Made by a program: the position numbers and the translations under genes. Below the pieces are notes generated by a model, which was not told the DNA's origin, did not search any database, and worked only from the letters and a program-made list of their open reading frames with translations. From Schmidtea polychroa (Eukaryota), in NCBI GenBank assembly GCA_044892525.1, contig CM097885.1, forward strand, positions 25,608,001 to 25,672,000: a stretch of DNA of 64,000 nucleotides, given 5' to 3'. This document shows positions 15,229-15,693 of the stretch, piece by piece (the first letter of the stretch is position 1; each line of letters begins with the position of its first letter).

Positions 15229-15693
15229 ATGCTTTCAAATATAAATTACAGGGCAAAAGCTGATGTATCAAAAATGGTATTTCCAATGGGGAAACCACAA
15301 CAACTTATCAATAGAAGTAAAAAATATCCAATAATATATTTCAAAACTGGTAAATGTAGAATTATGGGGTGTAAGGAAATAATCAAAGCTAGTGAATATA
15401 ATGTTTATGATTTAGAAATACAATCGATAACCGTAACTTCCGATATAGGTTTTTCTTGTAATTTAAATAATTTGGCTAAATTAATACCATGCTTTTACGA
15501 ACCAGAATTATTTCCAGCTTTGAGATATATAAAATATAACCCTATGTGTGTAAATATATTCGCTAGCGGTAAGATAGTAATTCTTGGAATAAAAAATATT
15601 GATTACAAATGTATAGTTGATAATATCATATCTGAAATTAAATCAATAATTGAAGGAAAAGAATTTTTAGATTTTTTATTATCACTTAATTAA
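15229..15693 (+). CDS. TATA-binding-protein-like protein
   Basis: Two TBP repeats: IIYFKTGKCRIMG and YEPELFPALRY...VNIFASGKIVILG. Confidence 0.8.
   Translation: MLSNINYRAKADVSKMVFPMGKPQQLINRSKKYPIIYFKTGKCRIMGCKEIIKASEYNVYDLEIQSITVTSDIGFSCNLNNLAKLIPCFYEPELFPALRYIKYNPMCVNIFASGKIVILGIKNIDYKCIVDNIISEIKSIIEGKEFLDFLLSLN

Follow-up and report, generated by a model that had tools for sequence, protein, structure and literature searches.

The locus described here raises the question of why a Polinton should encode a TATA-binding protein (TBP), and which promoters such a protein might serve. The window analyzed, a stretch of 64,000 nt from Schmidtea polychroa (assembly GCA_044892525.1, contig CM097885.1, positions 25,608,001 to 25,672,000), contains a 154-aa ORF that an earlier note had read as a Polinton-encoded TBP homologue, proposing for it a role as a late-promoter specificity factor or as a decoy of host TBP, with a possible link to RNA polymerase III (Pol III) through TFIIIB. 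The product of this ORF is referred to below as mini-TBP.

Both TBP repeat signatures pointed out in that note (FKTGKCRIMG and YEPELFPAL...IFASGKIVILG) are present in the translation, and Pfam TBP (PF00352) matched the protein at E 8e-15 in a single stretch, residues 62-125, corresponding to the second repeat; the same Pfam family was matched by 72 of 72 aligned family members. All 35 matches at E ≤ 1 in a PDB sequence search were TBPs or TBP fusions. An AlphaFold2 model built on a 72-row alignment (pLDDT 96.6, pTM 0.85) matched human TBP over both lobes in the VIA comparison (model residues 1-142 versus 164-337, Z 12.6, rmsd 2.5), the best non-TBP structural match reaching Z 6.2, and TBPs were likewise the best Foldseek matches (E 2e-9). 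As modeled, the ORF product is a member of the TBP family with a two-lobe saddle fold. The reported shortening of the first repeat was borne out as well: N4 and F38 are 34 residues apart, compared to 47 in six of seven canonical TBPs, and G47 and S66 are 19 residues apart, compared to 34-35 in canonical TBPs. DSSP analysis of the model gave no H1 and a 4-residue helix where H2 belongs, with the N-lobe strands retained.

The family set comprised 280 sequences, reduced to 243 by 90% dereplication, of which 208 are near full length. Within these 208, N4 is retained in 194 members and F95 in 206. The intercalating phenylalanines, singled out for checking in the earlier note, gave a mixed picture: canonical nuclear TBPs have four kinking phenylalanines, of which the window's protein keeps three and lacks the first in the N-lobe, and an aromatic residue lies near that place in 44/208 members. 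Family-wide substitutions were found at R44 (207), M46 (207), N109 (206), S66 (183), N6 (176), R99 (176), and C107 (174); the usual residues of canonical TBPs at these positions are V, T, L, N, V, I, and V, respectively. Residues 6, 44, 46, and 66 presumably face the DNA, and R99, C107, and N109 align with yeast I194, V203, and L205, based on the PDB aligned ranges and the alignment. The latter are the same three residues that are changed in the laboratory mutant TBPm3; according to passages of PMC1636458, these changes alter TATA specificity and allow TGTA to be read, and TBPm3 disfavors C late in the box.

The L5.1 phenylalanines, defined as DNA-kinking positions for both TBP lobes in passages of Ravarani et al. 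(PMC7221094), correspond to F38 and F111, each kept in 207/208 members. The same passages describe C-lobe glutamates at C.L3.2 and C.L3.4 that contact TFIIB and are mostly not kept in viral TBPs; in mini-TBP these acidic contacts are E91 (195/208, with D in 7 further members) and E93 (205/208). They also describe an N-lobe basic cluster on L2/H2 that serves TFIIA, TAF1, Mot1, and Brf as a shared binding surface. This cluster, together with H1/H2, is deleted in 147/208 members (the window's protein included for H2), and the 51/208 members that have the N-lobe segment length show a median of 2 K+R, compared to 6-9 in four eukaryotic TBPs. Roughly one in four family members (P0179, P0193, P0217, L090, and L092 among them) keeps H1-/H2-length segments without the basic patch; N-lobe reduction, as read from the alignment, is a graded series across the family.

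Mini-TBP shares with cellular TBPs, both eukaryotic and archaeal, the saddle fold, the L5.1 phenylalanines of both lobes, the TFIIB glutamates, and N4, but its N-lobe is about 30 residues shorter, with no basic regulator cluster and one phenylalanine lost, and its DNA face carries polar residues. Eukaryotic nuclear TBPs differ from it specifically in having the N-lobe basic cluster and the full set of four kinking phenylalanines. Mini-TBP thus resembles a TBP whose DNA face has been re-lined and whose regulator surface is gone, with the TFIIB dock left in place. By its residues it is not TRF2/TBPL1, which has Trp for Phe at N.L5.1 according to passages of PMC7221094, where mini-TBP has F38.

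At least 150 copies of the mini-TBP gene at 97-100% identity were found in the genome (150 scored of 4135 candidates), 149 of them without a stop, and 30 of 30 fetched loci share an ATPase-TBP-139-aa gene neighborhood, in agreement with the claim that the homologue is Polinton-encoded. The elements concerned, termed type B, are 14.8-15.6 kb long with terminal repeats AGTAG...CTACT; AGTAGGG...CCCTACT ends with 6-bp target duplications were resolved in three of five copies tested, the automatic boundary in the other two being confounded by simple repeats. Each ~15-kb element has about 10 ORFs. The gene set includes PolB, a 407-aa capsid, a 120-aa protein, a putative minor capsid, an integrase, a 164-aa protein, an ATPase, TBP, and a probable single-strand DNA-binding protein (SSB), with a Bcl-2-like gene in some copies, and the SSB-like gene is the most constant neighbor of TBP. 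Type B PolB was recognized by similarity, since B copies match the L039/L040 PolB, which in turn match Pfam-positive type A PolB at E 4e-91 and 9e-76; Pfam on a type B PolB returned Endonuclease_7 only. The integrase matched Pfam rve at E 1.7e-7, just under its cut-off. The 407-aa ORF of other copies matched a type A capsid positive for the Pfam DJR family (profile probability 93%, E 3e-7) and was placed at 0.98 in Atlas clusters whose members carry PF21738 in 15-24% of cases. TBP adjoins 10/10 further B-type ATPase loci and occurs in 0/10 type A neighborhoods of 17 kb. Judged from sequence, type B is a Polinton, with terminal inverted repeats, 6-bp duplication, integrase, A32 ATPase, protein-primed PolB, and double-jelly-roll capsid, and mini-TBP is a core gene of this lineage.

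A break at about 12201 truncates the B copy in the window, which lacks the capsid and polymerase genes. Its features, in window coordinates, are as follows.

12196..12861, minus strand: putative minor capsid gene, cut 5' part (355 aa in other copies; breakpoint near 12201)
12807..13916, minus strand: rve integrase with chromodomain, containing a GT..AG-bounded (ATT)n stretch
13975..13982, minus strand: CATAAACA over the stop codon of the 164-aa gene, 66 nt before the integrase ATG
13978..14472, minus strand: 164-aa basic protein, B-conserved, tentatively labeled core-protein-like
14054..14061, minus strand: TATAAACA, 87 nt before a 75-aa ORF (13747-13974)
14486..15124, minus strand: 212-aa packaging ATPase of A32-like type, with which the structural block begins (Pfam Pox_A32 E 2e-7)
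14505..14512, minus strand: TATAAACA in the ATPase 3' end, 40 nt before the ATG of the 164-aa gene
15151..15158, minus strand: candidate late core promoter TATAAACA, 34 nt before the ATPase ATG
15193..15225, plus strand: predicted core promoter of the TBP gene, canonical type (TATATATA at 15193-15200, Inr-like TCATT at 15221-15225)
15229..15693, plus strand: mini-TBP ORF, 154 aa (N-lobe without H1 and H2; N4, F38, F95, F111, E91, and E93 retained)
16480..16899, plus strand: probable single-strand DNA-binding protein of the OB-fold type, 139 aa; a canonical TATAAAAA lies at 16439-16446
17620..17940, minus strand: 106-aa Bcl-2-like ORF that only some copies contain (Pfam Bcl-2 at E 0.001, which does not reach the curated cut-off)
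18150..18800, no strand assigned: right terminal inverted repeat of B, ending ...CAATACCCTACT, inner edge approximate

The mini-TBP ORF is indeed divergent from the structural block, with the ATPase gene 104 bp away. The label of the cut ORF at 12196..12861 as a putative minor capsid gene follows from its position; it had no Pfam match. The model of the 139-aa protein (pLDDT 89) had ASFV CP312R, Enc34 SSB, and T7 gp2.5 as its best folds, at moderate Z scores of 6.5-7.2, and Atlas gave no usable match for this protein; a role for it as a TFIIB-like partner was ruled out by its SSB-like OB fold.

At least four B subfamilies were distinguished, with TBP genes 52-60% identical between them. The dN/dS of TBP was 0.12-0.34 over six subfamily pairs, and 0.18-0.21 for the window's gene versus three others, values that are rough because dS is near saturation; on these estimates, the gene is under purifying selection. 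Between the window's gene and its counterpart at L112:5887-6321, TBP is 60% identical (dS 1.8), the adjacent ATPase 97% (dS 0.38), and the SSB-like gene 87%. The 60% identity of TBP compared to 97% for the ATPase suggests that the TBP cassette was swapped between B subfamilies.

A host pseudogene or a chance ORF was ruled out by copy number, shared neighborhood, dN/dS, and a 100/100 branch in the phylogeny. The host has one canonical, intron-containing TBP gene separate from mini-TBP, and five divergent two-lobe TBP paralogues (host TBP genes at L132-L138, G000 C1 and C2), two of which were seen without introns in the ORF. In the 50-row tree, the branch at 100/100 split 37 family rows from 13 cellular and other rows, the latter including host TBP and the five paralogues, one other viral TBP, and two archaeal rows from one genus. 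Thus, the phylogeny called for in the earlier note placed the family apart from host TBPs, in a tree with no TRF2 sequences and only one other viral TBP, and the donor of the mini-TBP gene cannot be named from so few viral and archaeal rows without TRF2.

Outside this genome, 97 of 120 candidates were mini-TBP homologues, and a profile search gave further, more distant relatives; about 200 relatives group apart from host TBPs. Mini-TBP was found in 122 metagenome loci, 80 of which were kept: 39 have a Polinton hallmark gene, 29 have accessory genes of these elements only, and 12 have neither, 10 of these 12 being under 2.2 kb. A Polinton hallmark was present in 27/35 metagenome loci of at least 3 kb. 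Searches of viral contigs for remote TBP lineages with DNA context found none and returned one large-virus TBP of canonical length (L031), beside a family B polymerase, a ribonucleotide reductase, and a 2069-aa ORF.

To which promoters such a factor might be directed was examined in the upstream regions of 112 dereplicated structural genes, each with 115 nt of upstream DNA and a motif window of 30-115 nt upstream. The box YATAAACR was found on the sense strand before 85/112 structural-block genes and on the reverse strand before 0/112, compared to 6/99 other B genes and 1/38 genes of the TBP-less type A. Motif counts share ancestry and p-values are indicative only; Fisher p-values overstate independence, because TBP plus motif versus neither is a single B-versus-A lineage contrast. 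No B element without a TBP gene was found in searches that included viral contigs. Among structural genes, the box preceded the capsid (12/12), 120-aa (9/9), 164-aa (20/21), integrase (9/11), ATPase (19/25), C7 (7/11), protease (3/7), and penton-like (6/16) genes; among other B genes, it preceded the SSB-like (5/35), 137-aa (1/4), TBP (0/54), and Bcl-2-like (0/6) genes. ATPase genes were preceded by it in each of the three gene orders observed. Maps of nine TBP-bearing elements have one site before most structural genes, nearly always on the coding strand, and the type A element in the window shows two sites over its 13.5 kb. In the 34 metagenome loci counted, the structural strand carries 188 sites and the opposite strand 7, compared to a bias of at most about 2:1 toward the structural strand for seven look-alike control words. 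Few variants with a single changed base were seen (at position 7, C in 85 cases, A in 1, G in 2, and T in 7), the same box occurs in elements of 27-47% GC from many metagenomes, and all loci with DNA context share one box.

The position of the box is consistent with a core-promoter element. Of the 85 sites, 51 lie inside the upstream gene, in two reading frames; the 3'-terminal 115 nt of upstream coding sequences contained 60 sites, compared to 21.5 after synonymous shuffling, and elsewhere in these genes 8 versus 5.3. Out-of-frame ATGs occupied 40/1190 positions before motif +30 versus 5/1077 after +33 (p 2e-7), and 8/378 versus 5/869 in long leaders alone (p 0.028), with six control triplets flat across the +30 region; therefore, transcripts would start near +30 to +33 from the first base of the motif. 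The resulting spacing of ~30 nt between box and predicted start is TATA-box geometry. For ATPases, the shortest motif-to-ATG distance with a homologous Met is 32 nt, and in three more ATPases the site lies 17-18 nt before the ATG of the longest ORF and 36-41 nt before the homologous Met. The reverse complement of the box begins with TG, as does the TBPm3 site, and either binding orientation is conceivable.

Canonical TATA boxes were found before 36/99 other B genes and also before 23/112 structural genes, which leaves the early class with loose limits. Among the upstream regions of TBP, SSB-like, and Bcl-2-like genes, 35/95 have a canonical TATA, and in 12 of these TCA[CT]T, which is Inr-like, follows at +29 to +31. 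We infer that the promoter of the window's TBP gene belongs to this early class.

The most probable explanation, to which we assign a probability of roughly two in three, is that mini-TBP is an altered-specificity factor driving late genes from YATAAACR by way of the host's TFIIB and Pol II. First to be expressed, from ordinary promoters read by host TBP, would be the genes for TBP and for the SSB-like and Bcl-2-like proteins. Mini-TBP would then read YATAAACR through its re-lined concave face, with a predicted preference for this box over TATAAAAG, and its kept C-lobe glutamates would dock host TFIIB, a partner proposed because neither a TFIIB nor a polymerase was detected in the element: no ORF of the B elements suggests an RNA polymerase, and no TFIIB was found in them with a shallow 8-row TFIIB/Brf profile, which a very divergent cyclin fold could escape. 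Pol II would thereby be brought to the packaging and capsid genes, with transcripts starting ~30 nt 3' of the box, and loss of the N-lobe helices may free mini-TBP from control by Mot1, TAF1, and TFIIA. The late-promoter branch of the earlier proposal thus gains a candidate cis-element. Counting against it are the absence of the box before 10/16 penton-like and 4/7 protease genes and its presence before 5/35 SSB-like genes, the loss of one kinking phenylalanine, and the five host TBP paralogues, which might read a variant box. The stronger version, in which type B Polintons have a two-part orthogonal late system consisting of a ~150-residue TBP that has shed its host-control surface and its own 8-bp box and drawing only TFIIB and Pol II from the host, is favored by a narrow margin over its negation.

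In the host genome, Pfam TFIIB had 32 candidates versus 2998 for TBP. At least 13 similar TFIIB-like ORFs of ~300 aa are clustered there (G000 C3:38-39 Mb and C1:23.8-24.2 Mb), besides several Brf1-like genes; two TFIIB-like ORFs (L160:3575-4477 and L161:3185-4087) are intronless and 34% identical to canonical TFIIB.

The box might instead be read by a host factor, be it a forkhead protein, a TBP paralogue, or, weakly, host TBP, with mini-TBP doing something else. The forkhead consensus is RYAAAYA, which we take ATAAACA within the box to fit; the five divergent paralogues offer further potential readers, and the link between motif and gene is purely one of co-occurrence. This explanation is nevertheless unlikely: the G preferred by forkhead proteins at position 2 was seen once versus A 85 times, T occupies position 7 in seven cases versus C in 85, and reverse-strand sites are lacking, whereas the fixed spacing to the predicted start suits a core-promoter element. 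Moreover, the box is the same at 27-47% GC across many metagenomes, and type A elements in the same genome make no use of it. The decoy proposed in the earlier note, which would occupy host TATA boxes or soak up TFIIB and so dampen host transcription, draws on the kept TFIIB glutamates, the missing TFIIA/TAF1 surface, and the nearby Bcl-2-like gene, a sign that host-interaction genes are carried. It is improbable, however, since a decoy would be expected to have a host-like DNA face, yet near-invariant positions are changed, and it leaves the element-specific box unexplained. Slimmer still are the chances that the machinery of a helper giant virus serves the box, as for virophage promoters, with TBP as an accessory. 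Promoter motifs reported as common to giant viruses, virophages, and some Polinton-like viruses provide a precedent, but integration of these elements produces 6-bp target duplications, a host-type TATA (in some cases with an Inr) precedes at least one third of their non-structural genes, and the elements encode their own TATA-type factor, with no helper identified.

The suggested role as a TFIIIB subunit for Pol III small-RNA units in the elements did not hold up and is very improbable. Brf1/Brf2 also contact C.L3.2, and tRNA genes occur in 2/60 TBP-bearing loci, but the N-lobe helix used by Brf is deleted, 58/60 TBP-bearing loci have no tRNA, the Pol III-like unit belongs to the TBP-less element A, and the box stands before protein-coding genes. 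The two tRNA genes, a tRNA-Ile (L080:3449-3523) and a tRNA-Cys (L090:5425-5496), lie within metagenome elements, and 0/17 own-genome stretches among the 60 loci have one. As for the Pol III units claimed for A, an A-box/B-box-like stretch, which we take to represent these motifs, is present in the type A terminal repeat at 4357-4412 and in matching A repeats; ARAGORN called no tRNA anywhere in the window, and Rfam gave nothing meaningful over 4200-19900. Lastly, YATAAACR could be a poly(A) or trans-splicing signal of the neighboring gene, in view of the similarity of TATAAA and CATAAA to minor poly(A) signals and of the many sites located close to where upstream genes end. There is hardly any probability left for this reading, given that the site precedes the ATPase although the upstream gene is divergent, that 38/85 sites are located within upstream coding sequence at a depth of more than 35 nt, that 17/85 have no AG before the ATG, and that AATAAAC occurs in 2/112 regions. 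The position, variant, shuffle, and ATG data all weigh against reading the motif as a poly(A) signal, a trans-splice signal, or an initiator.

The proposed late-gene switch has a parallel in the beta- and gammaherpesvirus vTBP (EBV BcRF1, KSHV ORF24, HCMV UL87), which works with a TATT late box according to passages of PMC4893493. Common to both are a TBP mimic encoded by the virus, a variant TATA box that precedes structural genes, and the use of host Pol II, the last being presumed here. In contrast, vTBP is a large multidomain protein and its box is TATT, and ORF24 is reported to bind the Pol II CTD directly (PMC7498053), while the kept glutamates of mini-TBP suggest host TFIIB as a partner. 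In structure, mini-TBP is weakly similar to BcRF1 (E 0.012), and type B elements show no sign of the other five vPIC genes. As a single 154-aa protein in an element of ~10 ORFs, mini-TBP is not a vPIC member, and at most it would work like the herpesvirus late factor by analogy.

Giant-virus and mirusvirus TBPs likewise lack the N-lobe regulator signature, according to passages of PMC7221094, which also state that giant viruses with a TBP mostly encode their own TFIIB and that C.L3.2 is kept in about 40%. Mini-TBP differs in keeping E91 in 195/208 members, with no element TFIIB or RNA polymerase detected. Its best fold match among viral models in BFVD was at E 1e-7, and the model fits cellular TBPs better than viral ones. 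TBP is mentioned in mirusvirus-like elements in parts of PMC10675990. Type B shares terminal inverted repeats, 6-bp duplication, PolB, integrase, ATPase, capsid, and a Bcl-2-like gene with Polintons/Mavericks/adintoviruses, as covered in passages of PMC8502044. Figure legends of that work (Starrett et al., PMC8502044; bioRxiv 10.1101/697771) list "TBP" in midsize linear dsDNA viruses of non-animal eukaryotes, so the earlier statement that TBP is unexpected in a 15-20-kb element was slightly overstated; the likeness to mini-TBP is one of legend label. The Starrett passages neither describe such a family nor mention a truncated lobe, a promoter motif, or a model of regulation, and TBP/promoter text is absent from the passages of 10.64898/2026.06.19.733378. 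No description of the mini-TBP family or of YATAAACR was found in the literature searched, which excludes most subscription journals.

The timing of capsid genes in animal Polintons, and whether these elements are still viral, are poorly known. If the late-switch reading is true, it would be the smallest viral early-to-late switch known, having arisen independently of herpesvirus vTBP, and would amount to a genuine gene-expression cascade of viral type in animal Polintons. The factor and its matching box would provide a sequence marker for late genes across the group, and the small orthogonal pair could serve as a transcription tool. The ~200 natural variants, most of which drop both N-lobe helices, are predicted to keep the fold, and differ at the three TBPm3 positions, could indicate which parts of TBP serve specificity and which serve regulation.

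Several minor observations concern the window's B copy and its surroundings. The GT..AG-bounded (ATT)n stretch of the B integrase, at 13437-13530, varies in length among 10 own-genome matches and is missing from the L194 subfamily and from four metagenome relatives; it may be an intron. A Cys-rich frame of ~100 codons follows a GT..AG stretch 3' of the TBP gene (15917-16225) and resembles a 137-aa ORF in subfamily B2 (L112:5400-5810), neither having a match in a Pfam search. The B copy is part of a tandem 28.5-kb unit, spanning 8500-37000 in the window and also seen in L127 and L128, that contains an HSP70 gene, the cut B, and a whole A. The B terminal repeat abuts the tip of that of A at 18797-18800; it is only in this tandem locus that B is joined by A, an element devoid of TBP.
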